NCBI GenBank assembly: GCA_041650515.1 | Contig: JBAZLA010000001.1 | Coordinates: forward strand, 146,710-210,709 | Reading direction: 5' to 3' | Length of the DNA: 64,000 bases | From: Patescibacteria group bacterium | GTDB taxonomy: Bacteria > Patescibacteriota > Patescibacteriia > JACRDY01 | Shown here: one piece after another, positions 1,491 through 61,169 of the stretch | Layout: every line of letters starts with the position of its first letter | Position numbering within the stretch: the first letter of the stretch is position 1 | Made by a program: the position numbers and the translations under genes | Notes under the pieces: model-generated | The model's input: only the letters and a program-made list of their open reading frames with translations | The model's database searches: none | Told to the model about the DNA's origin: nothing

Positions 1491-1619
1491 TTATTAATAA
1501 AAATTAGTCTTAAATTTATCTTAGGCTATTCGGCCTTTTTTGGCAACCAATCTAAATGATTAAACAAAAAACACCCCGAGGAGTGATTTTATTCAGTACT
1601 ATATTTTTTATCGAGGTCA

Positions 1620-1745
1620 CTCAGGGCAGGCTTGCCACCCTACGGGTGGTCCCCCGTAGGGGGAAACCTGCGACCTCCGCGTCCCAAACGCGGCGCGCTA
1701 GCCCCGCCCAAAGGGCGGTCGCCCTCTGGGCGAAACTGTACGCCA
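1620..1745 (-). repeat. Degenerate tRNA-Pro-like copy with double-hairpin insertion in T-loop
   Basis: The reverse complement shares the tRNA-Pro anticodon arm (GCTAGCGCGCCGCGTTTGGGACGCGGAGGTCGCAGGTT). A 30-nt segment TCCCCCTACGGGGGACCACCCGTAGGGTGG then replaces the T-loop. The 5' part reads GCGTACAGTT[TCGCCCAGAGGGCGACCGCCCTTTGGGCGGG]GCTAGCGCG, with an insertion in the D-loop. Confidence 0.6.
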
Positions 1746-2031
1746 TACCATAGCTAGATACCACTCTACTCAGCTAATAATTTTCTATAATCAGCTTAAC
1801 TAATTTATTACCTACACCGGATTTTAAAAATTTTTCCCTTTGCCAAGCATCCTTTTGACAATAAAAACTCTCATAATAAACTAACTCAAATGGTCTATTC
1901 TGACTAGTCCAACTATTACTCCCCAAATTATGTTCCGCTAATCTTTTTCCCGGTAATTTCTATGTTACGCCAACATAAGATTTACCGTTCTTTAGACTTT
2001 TTAAAATATAAATAAAAAACATATATCTTTA

Positions 2032-2105
2032 TCGGGGTGACAGGGCTCGAACCTGCGACCTCCGCGTCCCAAACGCGGCGCGCTAGCCAACTGCGCTACA
2101 CCCCG
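2032..2105 (-). tRNA. tRNA-Pro (anticodon TGG)
   Basis: The reverse complement CGGGGTGTAGCGCAGTTGGCTAGCGCGCCGCGTTTGGGACGCGGAGGTCGCAGGTTCGAGCCCTGTCACCCCGA folds as a 74-nt cloverleaf. The anticodon loop is TTTGGGA. Confidence 0.85.
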
Positions 2106-2117
2106 GCGATAAAAATT

Positions 2118-2198
2118 GAAGGAACAATTCGTACGCGCTAGCCCCGCCCAAAGGGCGGTCGCCCTCTGGGCGAAACTGCGCTACACCCCGATAAAAAA
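2118..2198 (-). repeat. 5' tRNA-Pro fragment duplicate with 31-nt double-hairpin insertion in D-loop
   Basis: The reverse complement is CGGGGTGTAGCGCAGTT[TCGCCCAGAGGGCGACCGCCCTTTGGGCGGG]GCTAGCGCG followed by unrelated sequence. It is identical to the tRNA-Pro 5' end outside the insert. Confidence 0.6.
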
Positions 2199-2392
2199 AT
2201 AATGTTCAGGCAATAAACGCAGAAAACTCGATCCAGAGTCTCCCCCACGCAAATGCCGAGGGGCAGCCCTTCGCTTCGCTCAGGATGACAGACTGCCGAC
2301 CCGTTCGTCCCGATTGTCATCGGAACTCAGGGCAGGCTCCAGGATTTTCTATAAATTTATTCCTGCTAGTCCGGAGTTTATCCCTTTACAAA

Positions 2393-2464
2393 TGCCGAGG
2401 GGCAGGATTGAACTGCCGACGCAAGGATTTTCAGTCCTTCGCTCTACCACTGAGCTACCTCGGC
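2393..2464 (-). tRNA. tRNA-Phe (anticodon GAA)
   Basis: The reverse complement GCCGAGGTAGCTCAGTGGTAGAGCGAAGGACTGAAAATCCTTGCGTCGGCAGTTCAATCCTGCCCCTCGGCA is a 72-nt cloverleaf. The anticodon loop is CTGAAAA. Confidence 0.85.
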
Positions 2465-2533
2465 AAAAATTCTCGGCATTTGTAAAGGGACTCTACCACT
2501 GAGCTACCTCGGCAAAAATTCTCGGCATTTGTG
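2443..2533. repeat. Tandem direct repeat (~49 bp x2) duplicating the tRNA-Phe 5' end plus upstream flank
   Basis: The sequence ctctaccactgagctacctcggcaaaaattctcggcatttgt occurs twice in tandem. A 3'-end fragment aaatgccgaggggcag occurs at 2253 as well as at 2391. Confidence 0.7.
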
Positions 2534-2626
2534 TAAGGGAAACAATGTAGTTTTTAGTCCAAAATTCATCCTCAACGGATAAAAACTTCAACACTTCAGC
2601 TATCTTAACAACTATCTGGTACAAAG

Positions 2627-2936: not shown

Positions 2937-4586
<1,650 letters not shown>

Positions 4587-5157
4587 TTAAATACTGATAA
4601 GTTGTCCGTACACTAACAACACCAGTTGCTAATGTTTACCCCGTAGAGTCTACGGGTTTAACTCTCTCAGTAGAGTTATAAGAGAAAATAAAGTTGAATA
4701 GATAGGTTACTTCGCACTTACGATTTACTATCACTTTTCGATTGTCAATGTTCCTTTTCTCACCTCTTAATTTTTTATCAAATTAAGAGACGAAAAAACA
4801 GTGCGGGCCAAATCAACGACTTCCACTGGGGAATGTCTACTCAGCCATCACTGTTTTTCCGTCTACTTTTCCCCTGTCAGGGGAAAGTTTAGATGAATTG
4901 TAATAATGTTTTTATGGAACTTTTTATGCCTTGCCTCGCCGGTGCCCTAAAAGGGCATAGGCGGGTTATTTTTAAAGCCCTCTCATTATATACCTTTGCT
5001 AGACCCTGTCAAGGGTGAGACAACAAGCCAATAATGCACAAATTATACCCAGTCAATTTATAACCTAAATAGTAAAATAACCATTGTCCAAACCCTTGAC
5101 TAAATTGATTGTCCGTGTTACAGTTACTAATCCATTTCTCACACCAAGGAGGGCACT

Positions 5158-5541: not shown

Positions 5542-5697
5542 GGGGGTTTGGGGCGAATACGGCGCGAAGCCGAGCTCCGACCTTTTTTGATTACGCCGAG
5601 GAGCGAGGCGGGTAGAACGAGCTGGGGATGAACAACGAATCGCGCCTGATGAGCCCCAAAGCTTTTTTGGTTACTTTTTTGGCTACAAAAAAGTAAC
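5542..5697 (+). repeat. Structured intergenic repeat family, copy 1 (GGGGTTTGGGG...CCCCAAAGC TTTTTT + GTTACTTTTTTGGNTACAAAAAAGTAAC hairpin)
   Basis: It shares a conserved core with the copies at 13634, 23507, 26186, 51869 and 60850. The core is GGGGTTTGGGGCG-AATACGGCGCGAAGCCGAG...GAGCGAGGCGGGTAGAAC...AACAATGAATCGCGCC...GCCCCAAA. Confidence 0.75.
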
Positions 5698-5722
5698 CTA
5701 CCTGCTAATAAAATAATACCTG

Positions 5723-6999: not shown

Positions 7000-7154
7000 A
7001 CGCTATAGTACTTAATACATAGTACACAGTACAGAGTAAATTGACCAGCCAGCAACATTTGGCTGATGTACTCTGTACTCAGTACTGTGTACTATTATAA
7101 AACAAAAACCGTCGGTTTGTCACCAACGGTCTTCGTTTTATTCAATGAACAATT

Positions 7155-8999: not shown

Positions 9000-11273
9000 T
9001 TACTTGGCGTACTGCTGCCCTTCTTCCAGTTTAATCGACAGCATTTTGGAAACACTATCATCACCCATGGTCACGCCATAAAGCACATCGCCCTTGGCCA
9101 TGGTGGTTCGATTATGAGTCACAATAATAAATTGAGTTTTGTGCGCCAGGGTTTCAACAATATTAGACAATCGTTCTGAATTGGCTTCATCCAGCGCCGC
9201 ATCCACCTCATCAAGAACAACAAAGGGGGAGGGATTGCAAGCAATAATGGCGCAGATCAAAGCAATCGCCGTCATCGCTCGCTCGCCGCCTGACAAAGTG
9301 TTGAGACTAGAAATCCTTTTGCCTGGGGGACAAGCCTTAATCTCCACCCCGCCATATTCTAATTCCTTGCTACCGTCGCCGATTCTAGCTTTTCCGCCTC
9401 CGGCGGACCCGCCGTAGGCGGGCTTGTTGACCACCTTACCACTCTCATCCAGCTCTTCTTCATCATCTTCGATCTCGATCATAATTTTTTCCAAACTCGC
9501 CTTACCGCCACCAAACAACACTTGAAAATATTCACCAAACTTAGCATTAATATTTTGAAAAGTCTCATCAAAACGCTTATGGATCTCTTCATCCAACTCG
9601 CGAATAATCTGTCGCAGACTTTCGATGGCCTGAGTTAAATCTTGATACTGCTCATTTAAAAATTCATAACGAACCTTAATCTCTTCATATTCTCTAATCG
9701 ACTCATCATCTAGACCACCGATTAACTCGAGCTGCCGTTTGAGCTTTTGAATTTTGTCATAAGCCTCAGCCATCCCGCTCTCGCCGATCGCCGGCTGCTG
9801 ACTGCTGGTTGGCAATTCAACATCTCCCATCTCTCGTTTAATCTCCCGTTCCAAATCTTCTTTTCGTGTCTCTAGTTTGGCTAGCTCAATCTTGATATCA
9901 TTAACCTTGATTGACAGATTATTAAGCTCGCTTTGCTGACCAGCAAACTGACGTTGCAGATCAAAAAATTCACCTTTTTTCTCTTGCTGTGTTAGGTTAA
10001 AATCAGCAATCGCCCGTTGGCTAGTCACTAATTCTTTAGCCACCAAACCCAAAGCCTCTTGGGTTATTTTTAGTTCCGCTTCTAATTCTTGATCAATTTT
10101 GATCTCCTCATCGGCTGGTTTCCTCACCTTACCCAACAAATCCTTAAGCCGGCCCTTGACATGATGAATTTGGTCTTTGACCTGGCCTAAGTGAACCAAT
10201 TCTTTAATCTGATCAACGTGGCTGATCAACGCTTCGTGGAGACTAATCAACTCTTCAATATACTGAGCCATCTCTTCAGCACCCAGGGGAATAAAATCCT
10301 GCTGGGCCTGCTCTTTGGCTAATTGAATTTTACTCTGCAAGATGAGCTGCCGTGACTGGAGCTGATTTTTCTTATCCAAAATCTGATTAAACTGCTGCTG
10401 TAATTTTTCAAATGCTTCCTGACCCGAATCTTCCTGCTCTAGTTGATTAAGCTTTTGTTGGATTGATCCCAAATTCTCGTGCTTAGCCAGTCGACCATCT
10501 TCAATAGCTTTAAACTCGCTCTGATATTTTTGCCAGTGTTCATTAATATCAAAATACAACTGACCATAATACTGTTGCTGGATACCGCGCAATTCCGTCT
10601 CAATCTCGCCACGCTGTTCAAGCCGCTTGACCAATCGACCGAGTGAACGATAACGCGGCCCTAATTCCTGCAAAGTCACGTCGGTTGTTTTAAGATTTTC
10701 CTCAGTCCGCAAAAGTTTATTCAGGGTCTGGTCCCGCTTGATTTGGTATTCTTTAACCCCAGCTGCCTCATCAAAAAACTCTTTACGCTCAGACTGGGTA
10801 GCCACCAAAAAATGATCCACCATGCCTTGGCCAATAACACTATAAGTCCGCTGACCAAAATTGGCCTTGGCCAATAGAATCAAAATATCCCCCAAGCGCA
10901 CCCGACTCTTATTCAATAAATATTCGCTTTCGCCGTCACGATAAAGCCGGCGGGTAATTACCAACTCAGAATAATCAATCTGAGCTTGGCCATCCTCATT
11001 ATTTAAATACAAAGAAACTTCGGCCATACCCACCCGGGATTTTTTATCCGAACCAAAAAAGATGACGTCTTCGCTCTTTTTACCCCGCAACGTCTTCATC
11101 GACTGTTCACCTAACACCCAGCGGATAGCGTCAGCAATGTTGGATTTACCGCTGCCATTAGGACCAACTACCGCTGTGATGCCTTTACCTTTACCATTAG
11201 CCGAGGGGAATTCTAAAATCGTCCGATTGGCGAACGACTTAAACCCTTGGATCTCGAGTTTTTGTAAATACAT
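9000..11273 (-). CDS. smc: SMC-family chromosome segregation ATPase, unusually short (757 aa)
   Basis: The N-terminal head carries GPNGSGKSN, the Walker A motif. A coiled-coil middle follows. The C-terminal head carries LSGGERAMTAIALICAI...VLDEVDAALD...QFIIVTHNRTTMAKGDVLYGVTM. Confidence 0.7.
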   Translation of the reverse strand: MYLQKLEIQGFKSFANRTILEFPSANGKGKGITAVVGPNGSGKSNIADAIRWVLGEQSMKTLRGKKSEDVIFFGSDKKSRVGMAEVSLYLNNEDGQAQIDYSELVITRRLYRDGESEYLLNKSRVRLGDILILLAKANFGQRTYSVIGQGMVDHFLVATQSERKEFFDEAAGVKEYQIKRDQTLNKLLRTEENLKTTDVTLQELGPRYRSLGRLVKRLEQRGEIETELRGIQQQYYGQLYFDINEHWQKYQSEFKAIEDGRLAKHENLGSIQQKLNQLEQEDSGQEAFEKLQQQFNQILDKKNQLQSRQLILQSKIQLAKEQAQQDFIPLGAEEMAQYIEELISLHEALISHVDQIKELVHLGQVKDQIHHVKGRLKDLLGKVRKPADEEIKIDQELEAELKITQEALGLVAKELVTSQRAIADFNLTQQEKKGEFFDLQRQFAGQQSELNNLSIKVNDIKIELAKLETRKEDLEREIKREMGDVELPTSSQQPAIGESGMAEAYDKIQKLKRQLELIGGLDDESIREYEEIKVRYEFLNEQYQDLTQAIESLRQIIRELDEEIHKRFDETFQNINAKFGEYFQVLFGGGKASLEKIMIEIEDDEEELDESGKVVNKPAYGGSAGGGKARIGDGSKELEYGGVEIKACPPGKRISSLNTLSGGERAMTAIALICAIIACNPSPFVVLDEVDAALDEANSERLSNIVETLAHKTQFIIVTHNRTTMAKGDVLYGVTMGDDSVSKMLSIKLEEGQQYAK

Positions 11274-13485: not shown

Positions 13486-13633
13486 ATATAAATAATCAAT
13501 TTAAGGTAAAAATATTTTACCACACTCAATCAAGTGTAACAAGCAATTAATCACCGGCGGCTTCTATTCTAAAACTATACTCTTTCCGATTTTTAGTTTT
13601 AATTTTAAAACCATAAAGATATTAATCCAGTAG

Positions 13634-13789
13634 GGGTTTGGGGCGAATATGGCGCGGAGCCGAAGTCCCCATCTGGTCGATACTGACCAGGGGACGAGGC
13701 GATTAAAACTAATTTCAAACTAAACAATGAATCGCGCCTTATAAGCCCCAAAACTTTTTTGGTTACTTTTTTGGTTGCAAAAAAGTAAC
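13634..13789 (+). repeat. Structured intergenic repeat family, copy 2 (with ~70-bp 5' preface from ~13560)
   Basis: It has the same GGGGTTTGGGGCGAATATGGCGCGGAGCCGAAG...CGCGCCTTATAAGCCCCAAAAC TTTTTTGGTTACTTTTTTGGTTGCAAAAAAGTAAC architecture. The internal hairpin GTCCCC...GGGGAC is compensatory relative to copy 5. Confidence 0.75.
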
Positions 13790-13830
13790 ATATTAAGACA
13801 ATTTTAGTAACAATAAAAACATCCCCCGAT

Positions 13831-23506: not shown

Positions 23507-23712
23507 GGGGTTTGGGGCAAATACGGCGCGAAGCCGAAGCTCCGACCTTTTCTGATTACGCCAAGGAGCGAGGCGGGTTAGTCCGTAGACAGCTAAACAA
23601 TGAATCGCGCCTTATGAGCCCCAAAACTTTTTTGGTCCGCCTAGACTCGCTAGGCGAGGCTGGTTACTTTTTTGCCCGCCTTGCCGGCGAGGCAGGGTTA
23701 CAAAAAAGTAAC
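23507..23712 (+). repeat. Structured intergenic repeat family, copy 3 (preface from ~23440; extra hairpin inserted in terminal loop)
   Basis: It reads GGGGTTTGGGGCAAATACGGCGCGAAGCCGAAGCTCCGACC...GAGCGAGGCGGGTTAGTCCG...AATGAATCGCGCCTTATGAGCCCCAAAAC TTTTTTGG...GTTACAAAAAAGTAAC. Confidence 0.75.
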
Positions 23713-26185: not shown

Positions 26186-26343
26186 GGGGTTTGGGGTCGG
26201 CAAGGGGCCGAGCCGAGTCTCCGACCTTTTCTGACTACACCAAGGAGCGAGGCGGGTAGAACCGTAAATAGATAAACAGTACTTTGCCCCTTGCCGACCC
26301 CAAAACTTTTTTATATTACTTTTTTGGTTACAAAAAAGTAATA
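26186..26343 (+). repeat. Structured intergenic repeat family, copy 4 (preface from ~26122)
   Basis: It reads GGGGTTTGGGGTCGGCAAGGGGCCGAGCCGAG...TACTTTGCCCCTTGCCGACCCCAAAAC TTTTTTATATTACTTTTTTGGTTACAAAAAAGTAAT. The closing helix GGGGTCGGCAAGGGGC/GCCCCTTGCCGACCCC is perfectly complementary and differs from copy 1 by compensatory changes. Confidence 0.75.
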
Positions 26344-26473
26344 TACCAACCAAAGTAAATACCCCTAGGACTGCTCCAATCCGATTTTACGTCGGACCTC
26401 GCAATGACGTGAACAAAAATTTGGCGGTTCGGCCTAAAACCTCTATAATTAGGTTATAATCTAGCAATAAAAT

Positions 26474-40154: not shown

Positions 40155-40232
40155 ACTAAAATCAAAAACACCTCCCAAAATAGGAGATGTCTTTTCCTTT
40201 GTCTTCGAACTTATGCCTAGAAACAAAGATCA
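40155..40232 (+). repeat. 75-bp direct repeat, copy A (terminator-like hairpin + T-rich tract)
   Basis: It matches 40790-40865 at about 88% identity. The sequence is aaaaacacctccc...ggagatgtcttttcctttgtcttcgaacttatgcctagaaacaaag. Confidence 0.7.
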
Positions 40233-40252
40233 GCTATGTGACGCGTTCAGAA

Positions 40253-40768
40253 CTATAGATGAAGCTTTGCGCCTTGATATTTCTCTAATAATTTCTTAAT
40301 ATCCTTATTAGATTTTATAATAATTATTTTTTTATTACTATGTTTCTTTAATAACTCTAGTGCTCTAGGTTTTCTTTCCTGAGGATATTCTAACAAAATA
40401 TTTCTAATTAACTTAAGGCTTACTTTTTCTTCACAATTGTTTAACTTATCAATTCTATCTTTTAAAATTCTTCTCTTAAACACTCGCCAGAGACAAACAG
40501 AACGATTGATATCTAAAAATATTATTGCATCGGTTGCTGGAGCTATAATATCAAGGGTGCTTTTATAATTTCCTTCTAAAATCCAACGGTCAGTTTTTAT
40601 CAACTCTAAAACTTTTTTTCGCCATCCACTTTTTTCTGGACTTTTCCATCCTGGTTGCCAATAACATTGGTCTAAACTCACAAAAGGAAAACTCAATATT
40701 TCACCAATCTTTTTTGCAATTGTAGATTTACCAGACCCAGAAGAACCTATAATTAAAATTCTTTTCAT
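40253..40768 (-). CDS. P-loop NTPase (adenylate-kinase/FlaR 'topology modulation'-like)
   Basis: 171 aa with a Walker A motif in ILIIGSSGSGKSTIAKKIG. The gene is bracketed by the 75-bp direct repeats. Confidence 0.55.
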   Translation of the reverse strand: MKRILIIGSSGSGKSTIAKKIGEILSFPFVSLDQCYWQPGWKSPEKSGWRKKVLELIKTDRWILEGNYKSTLDIIAPATDAIIFLDINRSVCLWRVFKRRILKDRIDKLNNCEEKVSLKLIRNILLEYPQERKPRALELLKKHSNKKIIIIKSNKDIKKLLEKYQGAKLHL

Positions 40769-40789: not shown

Positions 40790-40865
40790 TCTCAAACCAA
40801 AAACACCTCCCTCATCAGAAGGAGATGTCTTTTCCTTTGTCTTCGAGCTTATGCTTAGAGACAAA
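40790..40865 (+). repeat. 75-bp direct repeat, copy B, abutting tRNA-His
   Basis: See copy A. Confidence 0.7.
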
Positions 40866-40938
40866 GGTGACCGACGGGAATCGAACCCGTATAGCTGGTG
40901 CCACAGACCAGTGCACTAACCATTGTGCTACGGTCACC
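40866..40938 (-). tRNA. tRNA-His (anticodon GTG) with encoded G-1
   Basis: The reverse complement is G-GTGACCGTAGCACAATGGTTAGTGCACTGGTCTGTGGCACCAGCTATACGGGTTCGATTCCCGTCGGTCACC. The extra 5' G pairs with the discriminator C, which is the His identity element. The anticodon loop is CTGTGGC. Confidence 0.8.
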
Positions 40939-40984
40939 ATACATTAATTATTAATTACTAATTAATAATTGGTAACTGTTGTAA

Positions 40985-41264
40985 TCGCCCTCAGTAGGAA
41001 TCCCACCCCTACGGGTGGTGGCCCGTTAGGGCCAGAACCTACAAGAGAACAGTTGCTCTACTACTGGTTTCCAATATTCGCCCTCAGTAGGAATCCCACC
41101 CCTACGGGTGGTGGCCCGTTAGGGCCAGAACCTACAAGAGAACAGTTGCTCTACTACTGGTTTCCAATATTCGCCCTCAGTAGGAATCCCACCCCTACGG
41201 GTGGTGGCCCGTTAGGGCCAGAACCTACAAGAGAACAGTTGCTCTACTACTGGTTTCCAATATT
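40985..41264. repeat. Three tandem 93-bp units, each ending (tRNA orientation) in the 17-nt tRNA-Arg 3' terminus and containing a tRNA-3'-half-like segment with 32-nt double-hairpin insertion
   Basis: The units begin at 40985, 41079 and 41172 and are essentially identical. The next copy at 41265 is the genuine tRNA-Arg. The ORF-track 113-aa frame 40969..41310 is a repeat artefact. Confidence 0.8.
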
Positions 41265-41336
41265 CGCCCTCAGTAGGAATCGAACCTACATATCCAGCTT
41301 AGAAGGCTAGTGTTCTATCCATTGAACTATGAGGGC
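41265..41336 (-). tRNA. tRNA-Arg (anticodon TCT)
   Basis: The reverse complement GCCCTCATAGTTCAATGGATAGAACACTAGCCTTCTAAGCTGGATATGTAGGTTCGATTCCTACTGAGGGCG is a 72-nt cloverleaf. Confidence 0.8.
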
Positions 41337-41389: not shown

Positions 41390-42448
41390 CTAACTCTTTT
41401 TCCGCTGGCGACCATGAAAAGCCTTATAGACCTCACGCAAATGTTTATCGGTAATATGAGTATAAATTTGGGTTGTGGTGATGGAAGCATGGCCCAATAA
41501 CGACTGCACCGAACGGATATCAGCACCAGAAGTTAATAAATCAGTGGCAAAACTATGACGCAAAGTGTGCGGCGTAATCTTTTTGGTGATGCCGGCCAGC
41601 CGAGCGTACTTTTTGATCAATCGTTGCACTGACCGCGGCGTCAAAAAACTCACCTCCTCTACTCCTCTGGACTCTGGACTCGGGACTCGGGACTTATTTG
41701 CCCGATCATGACTAACAAAAATATAATCCGAACCATCCCGTCGAGTCGCCAAATAGCGTCGTAACCAAAATTTAGCTTGGTTAGAAATAAAAACCACTCG
41801 CGGTTTGTCACCCTTGCCCCGGACGGTAAATTCTTCTTTAGCTAGATTAATCTGATCTTTTTGAAGATGGACTAATTCTGAGACGCGCAGACCAGTCGAA
41901 AACAACATTTCTAATATGGCTTTGTCGCGGAGCGGAATAATATTGGCAATATAATCATTACCATCTTGATCAATCTCAACTTTATTAATCTGTAACGGCG
42001 CAGCTAAAAACCGTTCTAGATCGCTGCCTTCTAAATATTCAATGTGCCGTTCGGACTGCCTCGCTAGCTCAATTTTTTCTGGTGCCAAAGACCTAATATC
42101 GTTTTTGGCTAAATATTTAAGAAAAGAGCGCAAAGCAATCAGATGATAGTTCTGAGTGCTACTCTTGAGATTTTTACCATGATCATCAGTAGCTCGATTG
42201 AGCCAAAGCCGAAACTGACGGATCAGGCTCGAGTCGACATCTTCAATCTTAAAACTTTTGTTTTTACTTTTAGCCCAATTAAAAAACCGCTGTAAATAAA
42301 AATCATAATTACGAATCGTAGCTTGCGCTCGACCACGTTCGATCTCGAGATATTCGAGAAAATTAGTGACTAGGGGATTAGCTGACATAATTAAGAAAGC
42401 AAAAAAGCATACGGCCTCTCCGCCGAATCGGCGGATTGGCCTAAGCAA
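41390..42448 (-). CDS. Tyrosine site-specific recombinase/integrase (XerC/D-like)
   Basis: 352 aa with an N-terminal SAM-like domain. The catalytic C-terminus reads HTLRHSFATDLLTSGADIRSVQSLLGHASITTTQIYTHI (R...HxxR...Y). It is adjacent to tRNA-Arg. Confidence 0.8.
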   Translation of the reverse strand: MLRPIRRFGGEAVCFFAFLIMSANPLVTNFLEYLEIERGRAQATIRNYDFYLQRFFNWAKSKNKSFKIEDVDSSLIRQFRLWLNRATDDHGKNLKSSTQNYHLIALRSFLKYLAKNDIRSLAPEKIELARQSERHIEYLEGSDLERFLAAPLQINKVEIDQDGNDYIANIIPLRDKAILEMLFSTGLRVSELVHLQKDQINLAKEEFTVRGKGDKPRVVFISNQAKFWLRRYLATRRDGSDYIFVSHDRANKSRVPSPESRGVEEVSFLTPRSVQRLIKKYARLAGITKKITPHTLRHSFATDLLTSGADIRSVQSLLGHASITTTQIYTHITDKHLREVYKAFHGRQRKKS

Positions 42449-47615: not shown

Positions 47616-47702
47616 ATCTGTGTACTATGTACTAGGTACTAGGTACTAACATTATAAAAAAAGCCACCCGTAGGTGACTAGCTGCTGTAGGCAAGACTTT
47701 AC

Positions 47703-50740: not shown

Positions 50741-50924
50741 AGTACATAGTACTCAGCACCCAGTACACAGAAAAATATTAATCTAATAGCCTAACTAGTT
50801 AATTTACTTCCTAAAGTACTGGGTACTAGGTACTGGGTACTAGTTAATAATTGACAAAACCAATAAATTTGAGATAATGGGACAAACATTATCGAGGAGG
50901 GCTTTTTATTTAGGAATAATTGCT

Positions 50925-51868: not shown

Positions 51869-52049
51869 GTTGGGGTCTGGGGCGGATGCGGCGCCGAGTC
51901 CCGCCCCGGCCTCTTTGGTCTTTCCTTAGGGGCGGGACGGGTAGAACGAACTAAAGTTCAACAATGAATCGCGCCTCATTATGTCTCTTGGCGCCAAGAG
52001 ACATAATCCCCAGGACTTTTTTGCTACTTTTTTAGTCATAAAAAAGTAG
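51869..52049 (+). repeat. Structured intergenic repeat family, copy 5 (divergent; hairpin GTCCCGCCCC/GGGGCGGGAC)
   Basis: It reads GGTTGGGGTCTGGGGCGGATGCGGCGCCGAG...GGGCGGGACGGGTAGAACG...AACAATGAATCGCGCC...GACTTTTTTGCTACTTTTTTAGTCATAAAAAAGTAG. Confidence 0.7.
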
Positions 52050-52107
52050 AAAGAGTCCGTGACATAAACCACTCGATCCTTCGACTCGCCCTACGGGCTC
52101 GCTCAGG

Positions 52108-60849: not shown

Positions 60850-61004
60850 GGGGTTTGGGGGCGGCACGGGGCGGAGCCGAAGCTTCGACCTCTTCTGATT
60901 ACACCGAGGAGCGAGGCGGATTAATCCGTAAGTAGATAAACAATACTTTGCCCCTTGCCGCCCCCAAAACTTTTTTGCATTACTTTTTTGGTTACAAAAA
61001 AGTA
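60850..61004 (+). repeat. Structured intergenic repeat family, copy 6 (preface from ~60784)
   Basis: It reads GGGGTTTGGGGGCGGCACGGGGCGGAGCCGAAG...GAGCGAGGCGG...TTTGCCCCTTGCCGCCCCCAAAAC TTTTTTGCATTACTTTTTTGGTTACAAAAAAGTAG. Confidence 0.75.
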
Positions 61005-61169
61005 GATAATTACGTAGATGAGACAGAGCTCCCTTCGACTCGCTTCGCTCGCTCAGGGCGGGCCTTCGCGGAGTTTACCCTGAGTGAAACGAAGGGCTCA
61101 GAATAACAACAATAAGGTGGGCCTGCCCCTACTGTTTTAAAACCCCAAATTTTGTTAAAATAACGGCAT

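Follow-up and report, generated by a model that had tools for sequence, protein, structure and literature searches.

Two partial, interrupted copies of a tRNA-Pro gene flank the intact gene in a Patescibacteria group bacterium (GenBank assembly GCA_041650515.1, contig JBAZLA010000001.1, positions 146,710 to 210,709, a stretch of 64,000 nucleotides that we call the window). We read these copies, A and C, as decaying scars of a homing-type GIY-YIG nuclease cassette that lives in tRNA operons, with a mini-element of two adjacent hairpins (the double hairpin, DH) at the point of interruption, and we put the probability of this reading at roughly 0.55. It draws on the anatomy of the locus, the recurrence of the same layout in other genomes, a link between nuclease clade and tRNA isotype, the presence or absence of the nuclease gene at one syntenic position, and the membership of the DH in a dispersed repeat family.

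The locus lies on the minus strand, where ARAGORN and Rfam place, in order, 16S rRNA (4590-2937), tRNA-Ile (2700-2626), tRNA-Phe (2465-2392) and tRNA-Pro(TGG) (2105-2032). An earlier interpretation made from the letters of the window (the sequence-only reading) had put an intact tRNA-Pro with anticodon TGG at 2032-2105, and both programs agree (Rfam RF00005, 66.5 bits). It had also described a 5' fragment with a D-loop insert upstream and a diverged copy with the D-loop insert and a T-loop replacement downstream; direct reading combined with a hairpin scan bears out both. Copy A (2134-2190, minus strand) is a non-functional 5' fragment composed of cggggtgtagcgcagtt (2190-2174), identical to tRNA-Pro positions 1-17, a perfect 30-nt DH in the D-loop (TCGCCCAGAGGGCGA followed by CCGCCCTTTGGGCGG; 2173-2144), and ggctagcgcg (2143-2134), identical to tRNA-Pro positions 18-26. 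A spacer of 28 nt (2106-2133) separates it from the intact gene. In related loci this slot is often occupied by a nuclease gene; similar layouts that have none are L142, L186 and L188. Copy C (1611-1750, minus strand) is degenerate and lies downstream of the intact gene. Its 5' part (1750-1734) is degraded and is followed by the same DH as in copy A, again in the D-loop (1733-1704), a 39-nt core identical to the intact tRNA-Pro (1703-1665; D-stem 3' strand, anticodon arm, variable loop and T-stem 5' strand), a second DH in the T-loop (TCCCCCTACGGGGGA followed by CCACCCGTAGGGTGG; 1664-1635) and a diverged 3' end that is unable to pair with the 5' end of the copy (1634-1611). Copies A and C are joined by a perfect direct repeat of 45 nt (1694-1738 and 2134-2178), and the DNA fold of copy C has z = -4.8.

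ARAGORN, which the sequence-only reading had proposed as a check, called neither copy as a tRNA, and the Rfam tRNA model did not score either of them even with the threshold relaxed to E <= 1. Both programs find the intact genes only, and neither copy is a tRNA variant or a gene with an intron; both lack the paired acceptor stem and the detection by the model that mark a functional tRNA. A tRNA intron (group I or bulge-helix-bulge) and a split tRNA were rejected: neither copy is a complete tRNA, the insert is simply a palindrome, found at varied positions, and an intact gene stands alongside. A promoter-like site upstream of tRNA-Ile and a terminator-like hairpin with a T run after copy C (1572-1585, minus strand), both from a consensus scan only, suggest that tRNA-Ile, tRNA-Phe, tRNA-Pro, the nuclease gene described below and copy C are probably a single transcription unit. 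This raises the question of whether the DH-bearing pieces act as RNA, as hairpins that stabilize or process the nuclease mRNA, as split or intron-containing tRNAs, or as decoys. Such a role would fit the shared predicted transcript, the great stability of the hairpins, the spacing of the DH from the nuclease frame (10-36 nt where it precedes the start codon, 11-40 nt where it follows the stop codon), and the identity of the 39-nt core to the live gene. We nevertheless consider it very unlikely, because the acceptor ends of copy C are unpaired, the covariance model is blind to both copies, an intact tRNA is always alongside, the extent of the fragments varies from 11 nt to nearly full length, and the DH also occurs in hundreds of unrelated places, coding sequence included. 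No Rfam family matched the DH or the tRNA fragments, either at gathering thresholds or at E <= 1.

Between the intact tRNA-Pro and copy C lies a gene that the sequence-only reading overlooked (as it did the DHs in protein genes), a stand-alone GIY-YIG nuclease pseudogene of 82 codons (1774-2022, minus strand). Its frame is interrupted once, by an in-frame TAG that forms codon 21 (1962-1960); with this stop replaced, the translation matches Pfam PF01541 with E = 1.9e-15 (57.4 bits compared with a cut-off of 22.6). The window holds no second gene of this kind. Intact homologues of 82 residues, 57-77% identical to the window nuclease, occur in Patescibacteria, and the catalytic residues Y5, Y16, R27, H31 and E51 are invariant in 20 family sequences. 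The AlphaFold model (pLDDT 97) has the alpha/beta fold of the GIY-YIG superfamily. Its nearest structures are UPF0213 BH0048 and the Slx1 nuclease domain (1zg2, 7cq2, 4xlg, 6seh, 7cq4), with a weaker match to the catalytic domain of I-TevI; by sequence, the protein matches UPF0213 EF2693. The group I intron endonuclease model TIGR01453 reaches 22 bits compared with a cut-off of 56 and covers profile positions 3-76 of 215 only. The nuclease is a bare catalytic domain of the UPF0213/Slx1-like (YhbQ-like) type. Slx1 requires Slx4 and a RING-type domain; for the bacterial UPF0213 proteins we know of no established role and of no described link to tRNA genes. The family is large, with 13,215 representatives at E <= 1e-3, and the best matches listed are nearly all 63-140 residues long. 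Among the N-termini called for family members, some result from reading through an upstream DH (..SAKGGSASGG..) or a tRNA T-arm (..VGSNP..).

The layout recurs. We assembled a nuclease-first set with one genome per species, 80 loci out of more than 523 relatives. An intact tRNA on the same strand lies within 60 nt of the nuclease gene at 53 of the 80 loci (42 downstream, 12 upstream), with a background density of 0.09 tRNAs per kb, and an intact tRNA on the opposite strand lies within that distance at none of the 80. A perfect or near-perfect 30-nt DH is found within 80 nt of the nuclease gene at 29 of the 80 loci, and many others have an imperfect DH or a different GC-rich hairpin in the same place. 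When three loci found earlier are added, 35 of 46 DHs fall within 80 nt of a nuclease open reading frame (ORF), a zone that makes up 3.5% of the sequence. Dozens of assemblies, independent of one another and drawn from other Patescibacteria as well as other phyla, show the arrangement. This agrees with the comparison that the sequence-only reading had called for, in that partial, DH-interrupted tRNAs do stand beside intact ones in other genomes, and it supports its view that a systematic mechanism rather than random duplication is at work. It also bears on the possibility, which that reading had raised itself, of an assembly artefact through collapse or chimera of repeated tRNA sequence. Many related nuclease genes do sit on short contigs that end at a tRNA repeat, and the tRNA region of the window is covered by one assembly only; the same ordered layout on long contigs from many independent projects and assemblers makes an artefact hardly credible.

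Within this recurrence the geometry is strict. DHs near a nuclease gene are always inside a tRNA-derived fragment, at tRNA position 8, 12/13, 17, 35-37 or 55/56, and all of these interruption positions are unpaired in the cloverleaf. Two mirror-image forms occur. The first consists of the 5' part of a tRNA up to position x, the DH, 3-14 tRNA bases, the nuclease gene and the intact tRNA (for example L006, with a 5' tRNA fragment and DH, then the nuclease gene, then the tRNA). The second, which is the form in the window, consists of the intact tRNA, the nuclease gene, 4-12 tRNA bases, the DH and the tRNA from x+1 to its 3' end; here the downstream flank is frequently duplicated too. In both forms one arm of the displaced tRNA reaches the tRNA end and the other measures 3-14 nt. 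The short arm stays short whatever the value of x, and the site of the DH is therefore tied to the cassette junction. Locus L005, with tRNA-Pro, the nuclease gene, 'gcagtt', a DH and the remainder of tRNA-Pro, displays the layout of the window before decay, and L021 likewise has it with an undecayed downstream copy. The outer fragment can derive from a tRNA other than the inner intact one (L008, L012). Nuclease genes that lie away from tRNAs are centred in inverted repeats of 13-20 bp, and at L007 the gene is flanked by two half-DH hairpins.

The nuclease clades follow the tRNA isotype across hosts that are labelled as different phyla. One clade is found with tRNA-Ser at 14 of 14 loci. The clade of the window is found with tRNA-Pro at seven of the nine other loci that have a nearby intact tRNA, the remainder being one Asp and one Val, and further clades are grouped by His, Asn, Gln, Leu or Lys/Val. 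The cassette is also sporadic at a conserved site. Locus L088 is a syntenic relative of the window (S16, KH, TrmD, 16S, Ile, Val, NUDIX, Phe, Pro, homologous gene) in which tRNA-Pro is solitary, with 23 nt to the next gene, no nuclease gene and no Pro fragments. At L013 the nuclease gene follows tRNA-Pro and there is no fragment. The nuclease gene is thus present at L013, present as a pseudogene in the window and absent from L088. Our search for strain variants of the Pro locus returned identical sequence alone, including one identical contig that stops short of the tRNAs; the next relative is about 50% identical.

We favour a model in which an 82-residue GIY-YIG gene, carried inside tRNA transcription units on the same strand and tens of bases from an intact tRNA, would act as a homing cassette. 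The nuclease would break its cognate tRNA gene at a site with no pairing partner in the cloverleaf (8/9, 12/13, 17/18 or a position in the anticodon loop or T-loop), and repair from a donor allele would leave the cassette between a displaced partial tRNA and a complete one. Since the tRNA is essential, only products that restore an intact tRNA would survive, and every invasion would therefore leave a truncated copy beyond the nuclease gene. The DH, exactly at the interruption point of the displaced copy, would destroy the target there. Later the nuclease gene would decay, as the TAG in the window suggests, or disappear, as at copy A and in the tRNA-Arg array described below. The fragments would persist, with partial homogenization against the live gene as in the 39-nt core and the 45-nt repeat, and could amplify in tandem, as in the three tRNA-Arg units. 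Cleavage, repair-mediated spread and any role of the DH are steps that we infer from this arrangement.

The DH itself is a widespread palindromic repeat and is not specific to tRNAs. The window contains seven perfect adjacent pairs of 6-bp hairpins, compared with a mean of 0.01 and a maximum of 1 across 100 shuffles that keep the dinucleotide composition: three at the Pro locus, three in tRNA-Arg 3' fragments and one in a gene for SMC. The last (9393-9422, plus strand; gene 9000-11273, minus strand) is in frame, reads PAYGGSAGGG and falls in an insertion of about 36 residues relative to the Bacillus subtilis SMC head. Its loop order, with the pyrimidine-rich loop first, is the reverse of nearly all other copies. 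The design is 6+3+6 / 6+3+6 in 30 nt, and 39 distinct copies give the pattern TCNGCC, 3 nt, GGCNGA, then YCNGCC, 3 nt, GGCNGR, with changes on both sides in 8 of 12 pairs. Treated as two hairpins, the 39 variants have 99.6% of cells paired compared with 82% as one long hairpin, the former figure being partly a product of construction because the set was chosen for hairpin pairing. A single 30-nt hairpin is less well supported, in that the variable stem positions of the two halves differ; for the window's own copies, the DNA fold of lowest energy has the long hairpin stacked on the D-stem. The loops of the two halves are mutually complementary (columns 7-24 and 9-22 in 33 and 35 of 39 copies), and the DH is therefore an inverted repeat of a polar 15-mer. 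On the same contig, about 830 nt before window position 1, a further DH (TCACCCTAACGGGTGA followed by TCCCCCGTAGGGGGA; L001 17070-17100) stands in a T-loop context, between ggtgggttc and gattcccattacccgctcca, and represents another tRNA 3' fragment outside the window.

A scan that started from the DH covered metagenome contigs (at least 120), and 113 of the 128 pattern matches listed were perfect DHs. Among the matches listed, 59 of 113 lie inside an open frame of at least 150 codons, where they mostly read SA[KQE]GG[SP]A.GG, 20 of 113 lie within 400 nt of a tRNA, and the flanks are TTT and AAA (40 and 36 of 110) or TTC and GAA. Closing pairs that are TA-first or CG-first occur, also among the matches listed, in ratios of 13:1 near the nuclease, 13:2 in coding sequence and 3:4 near tRNAs, which is suggestive. 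This dispersal is what would be expected if two unrelated selfish elements were involved, a homing-type GIY-YIG gene that makes dead tRNA fragments and a DH that accumulates in them independently, the dead tRNA loops (TTC/GAA, TTTT/AA) being good DH targets in a compact genome that has few neutral sites. Most DHs are distant from nuclease genes, long frames and the recurrent flanks account for many of the matches listed, and DH-bearing fragments exist that have no nuclease gene, including copy A and the tRNA-Arg array. Independent accumulation does not, however, explain why the arm from DH to junction measures 3-14 nt in every mapped case, with the DH at 8, 17, 36 or 56, or why fragments with several loops usually carry a DH only in the loop proximal to the junction. 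The DH within 80 nt at 29 of 80 nuclease loci also speaks against it. So does the fact that the DH subtype tracks the nuclease clade, with the whole Ser clade having C-first loops. We regard two independent elements as unlikely.

The opposite proposal, which we rate no higher and consider doubtful, makes the DH a non-autonomous transposable element and the small GIY-YIG protein its structure-specific mobilizing nuclease. The enzyme would recognize extruded hairpins or cruciforms (the DH, tRNA arms, palindromes) and cut at the apex or beside it; DH copies would be patched in from other copies, and the tRNA duplications would be collateral products of repair. The nearest folds of the protein include Slx1, a nuclease of branched DNA, the insertion points lie in unpaired parts of the cloverleaf, and the DH halves are inverted copies down to the polarity of their loops, as expected of the site of a symmetric protein. 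The inverted repeats around tRNA-distant nuclease genes and the half-DH hairpins at L007 point the same way, as does the finding that on the DH-first contigs 8 of 11 nuclease genes lie within 200 nt of a DH, among the matches listed. This association could, however, reflect a shared host range, and we know of no GIY-YIG transposase in prokaryotes. Insertion of the DH into pre-existing hairpin loops was considered as a candidate and found weak support: flanks of solo copies can form a stem of at least five pairs in 13 of 110 cases among the matches listed, compared with about seven expected, an enrichment too slight to help the mobilizing proposal. More broadly, the DH and the 82-residue protein might together be a new kind of prokaryotic mobile system, a suggestion that we offer tentatively and hold a little more probable than either of these two alternatives. 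In such a system a structure-specific nuclease that cuts hairpin apexes (of tRNA arms and other palindromes) would spread its own gene and also a far more numerous non-autonomous mini-palindrome, the latter into tRNA pseudo-copies and in frame into protein genes, in Patescibacteria and beyond. We found no description of the GIY-YIG/tRNA-fragment/DH arrangement in the literature searched, subscription journals being outside its coverage.

Several observations weigh against the homing-cassette reading. The nuclease does not have the DNA-binding domain of characterized homing endonucleases, which leaves its site specificity unaccounted for, and the intact tRNA beside the cassette retains the presumed target, so that self-cutting would have to be avoided. 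The empty relative L088 is distant (about 50% protein identity), and no pair of filled and empty sites within one population was found. Only 6 of 113 DHs lie within 100 nt of a nuclease gene, among the matches listed. Finally, ten DH-bearing tRNA fragments adjoin an intact tRNA and have no nuclease gene, like copy A and the tRNA-Arg array; fragment and DH may therefore arise without a local nuclease gene.

The parallel that the sequence-only reading had drawn with the tRNA-Arg locus holds. Downstream of tRNA-Arg(TCT) (41336-41265) there are three tandem units of 93 nt (40982-41286, minus strand), each composed of a T-arm whose loop contains a 32-nt DH (41003-41034, 41096-41127 and 41189-41220), an acceptor 3' strand and a 34-nt spacer, and there is no nuclease gene at this array. 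Immediately upstream of tRNA-Arg is a gene for a tyrosine recombinase (41390-42448, minus strand); this recalls att-site remnants left by integrase-mediated insertion and excision of islands at tRNA genes. Integrases classically target anticodon loops and T-loops, and L003 also has an integrase gene nearby. This explanation was rejected as highly improbable: the Pro locus has no integrase, 5' fragments are as frequent as 3' fragments, only 28-440 nt lie between copies, and a tblastn search with the window recombinase gave no match in the 80 nuclease-first and 120 DH-first loci, 0 of 200 related loci.

Parts of the arrangement resemble known systems. SegB, a free-standing GIY-YIG endonuclease of the tRNA cluster of T-even phages, cuts tRNA-containing DNA and gives rise, by recombination, to tandem repeats of tRNA and segB (PMC13096335). 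The window gene is likewise embedded among tRNA genes. It differs in lying in a bacterial chromosome, in the regular partial tRNA copies, in the palindromic insert at the junction and in encoding a catalytic domain alone, of 82 residues, whereas Seg proteins are larger and carry DNA-binding domains; the window nuclease does not show the combination of catalytic and DNA-binding domain that defines the Seg/I-TevI type. In Allomyces mitochondria, Paquin et al. (1994) reportedly described an endonuclease ORF at atp6 with the end of the gene duplicated. The order reported there (working gene, endonuclease ORF, displaced and decaying gene end) matches that of tRNA-Pro, nuclease gene and copy C, and a double hairpin may also lie at that junction; the case differs in being mitochondrial and in having a protein gene as its target.

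The DH also has counterparts in design. Mitochondrial double-hairpin elements (DHEs) of chytrid fungi and fission yeasts and the GC clusters of yeast are short GC-rich paired stem-loops dispersed in AT-rich genomes; the DHEs occupy intergenic regions and rRNA genes, are apparently mobile and, in Allomyces, lack flanking duplications (PMC10085805, PMC2800124). Like them, the window DH is GC-rich, consists of two adjacent stem-loops and occurs in many dispersed copies, a likeness of design and not of compared sequence. Unlike them, it has a bacterial host (the 16S rRNA in the window is bacterial), keeps strictly to 6+3+6 / 6+3+6, is associated with tRNA fragments and with a GIY-YIG gene, and is frequent in coding sequence. 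A 663-aa protein encoded beside the Pro locus is identical to one that NCBI lists under Patescibacteria group bacterium. To our knowledge, DHEs are known only from mitochondria. The palindromic elements of Rickettsia, of about 100-150 nt, insert in frame into coding sequence, and the proteins tolerate the additional peptide segment. The DH is similarly spanned by open frames as a peptide insert, and the two are unrelated in sequence; as far as we know, the Rickettsia elements are restricted to that genus and have no link to a nuclease gene or to tRNA loops. In the REP/BIME-RAYT and IS200/IS605 systems, short hairpin repeats in inverted pairs far outnumber a dedicated enzyme gene and are recognized as DNA hairpins. 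The gene associated with the DH differs from these in being a GIY-YIG nuclease and not a HUH (Y1) transposase, with the repeat on one side of the gene and not flanking it; GIY-YIG is the only gene that recurs beside the DH, at loci where no scan with HUH profiles was made.

The tRNA genes of ultra-small bacteria, which have single-copy tRNA sets, are apparently a regular home for a large family of tiny nucleases. If our reading is true, these elements influence the make-up of tRNA operons, break assemblies and lead to faulty gene calls; many of the proteins that have been called start within a DH or a tRNA. In many proteins the DH contributes ten Gly/Ser/Ala-rich residues, and it is thereby an unnoticed source of insertions in the proteins of these lineages. 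The UPF0213/YhbQ-like proteins would gain a testable function if a stand-alone GIY-YIG domain had a defined DNA structure as its substrate, and the system, if real, would be a bacterial counterpart to the unexplained mitochondrial DHEs.

Other tRNAs in the window show related features. Direct reading revealed a 3' fragment of tRNA-Phe (2254-2300, minus strand) whose T-loop is replaced by ctgtcatcctgagcgaagcgaaggg, a different GC-rich insert, and an extra tRNA-Phe leader and 5' part (2491-2532, minus strand) that is a perfect 42-nt repeat of 2442-2483 (family D19) and carries no DH. The tRNA-Phe region (2240-2540, minus strand) contains no nuclease gene, and tRNA-Phe is flanked by a 19-nt inverted repeat (tccctttacaaatgccgag and ctcggcatttgtaaaggga) of which its own 3' end forms part. 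Another family of GC-rich inserts, the second in the window, starts with CCTGCC and in its full form is the palindrome CCTGCCTGCCGGCAGGCAGG; members occupy D- or T-loop positions of tRNA fragments at L006, L024, L055, L081, L084 and L088. At L088 a tRNA-Phe 5' fragment (5620-5700) carries CCTGCCTGCCGGCAGGCAGG after position 11, and a tRNA-Ile 3' fragment (4830-4925) is preceded by two hairpins; hairpin-bearing tRNA pseudo-copies are therefore general in the lineage. The window motif AGCCTGCCCTGAGT (1620-1633 and 2326-2339) may be a degenerate copy of the CCTGCC family.

Near tRNA-His, a 60-nt repeat of its downstream flank (40182-40241 and 40820-40879, 85% identical) brackets a gene for a P-loop kinase-like protein of 171 residues (40253-40768), which looks like a cassette inserted with duplication of the tRNA flank. 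Heptamer-like tandem repeats (GTACTNN / GGACTCN) occur at 7068-7094, 41669-41695, 47622-47648 and 50816-50842, the second of these inside the tyrosine recombinase frame, where it reads ..KSRVPSPESRG... The 16S rRNA (2937-4590, minus strand) matches over 1654 nt a model of 1533 positions and therefore holds about 120 nt of insertions; no 23S rRNA follows the tRNAs downstream of it. Lastly, a repeat of about 125-160 nt is present in six copies (5542-5700, 13633-13790, 23507-23665, 26186-26345, 51872-52050 and 60850-61009, plus strand as read) and matched no Rfam family. It is closed by a long helix (GGGGTTTGGGGC... with ...GCCCCAAAAC), in which 6 of 31 predicted pairs have changed on both sides and still pair, and in most copies a TTACTTTTTTGG..CAAAAAAGTAA hairpin follows; it looks like a multi-copy structured RNA or a terminator-associated element.

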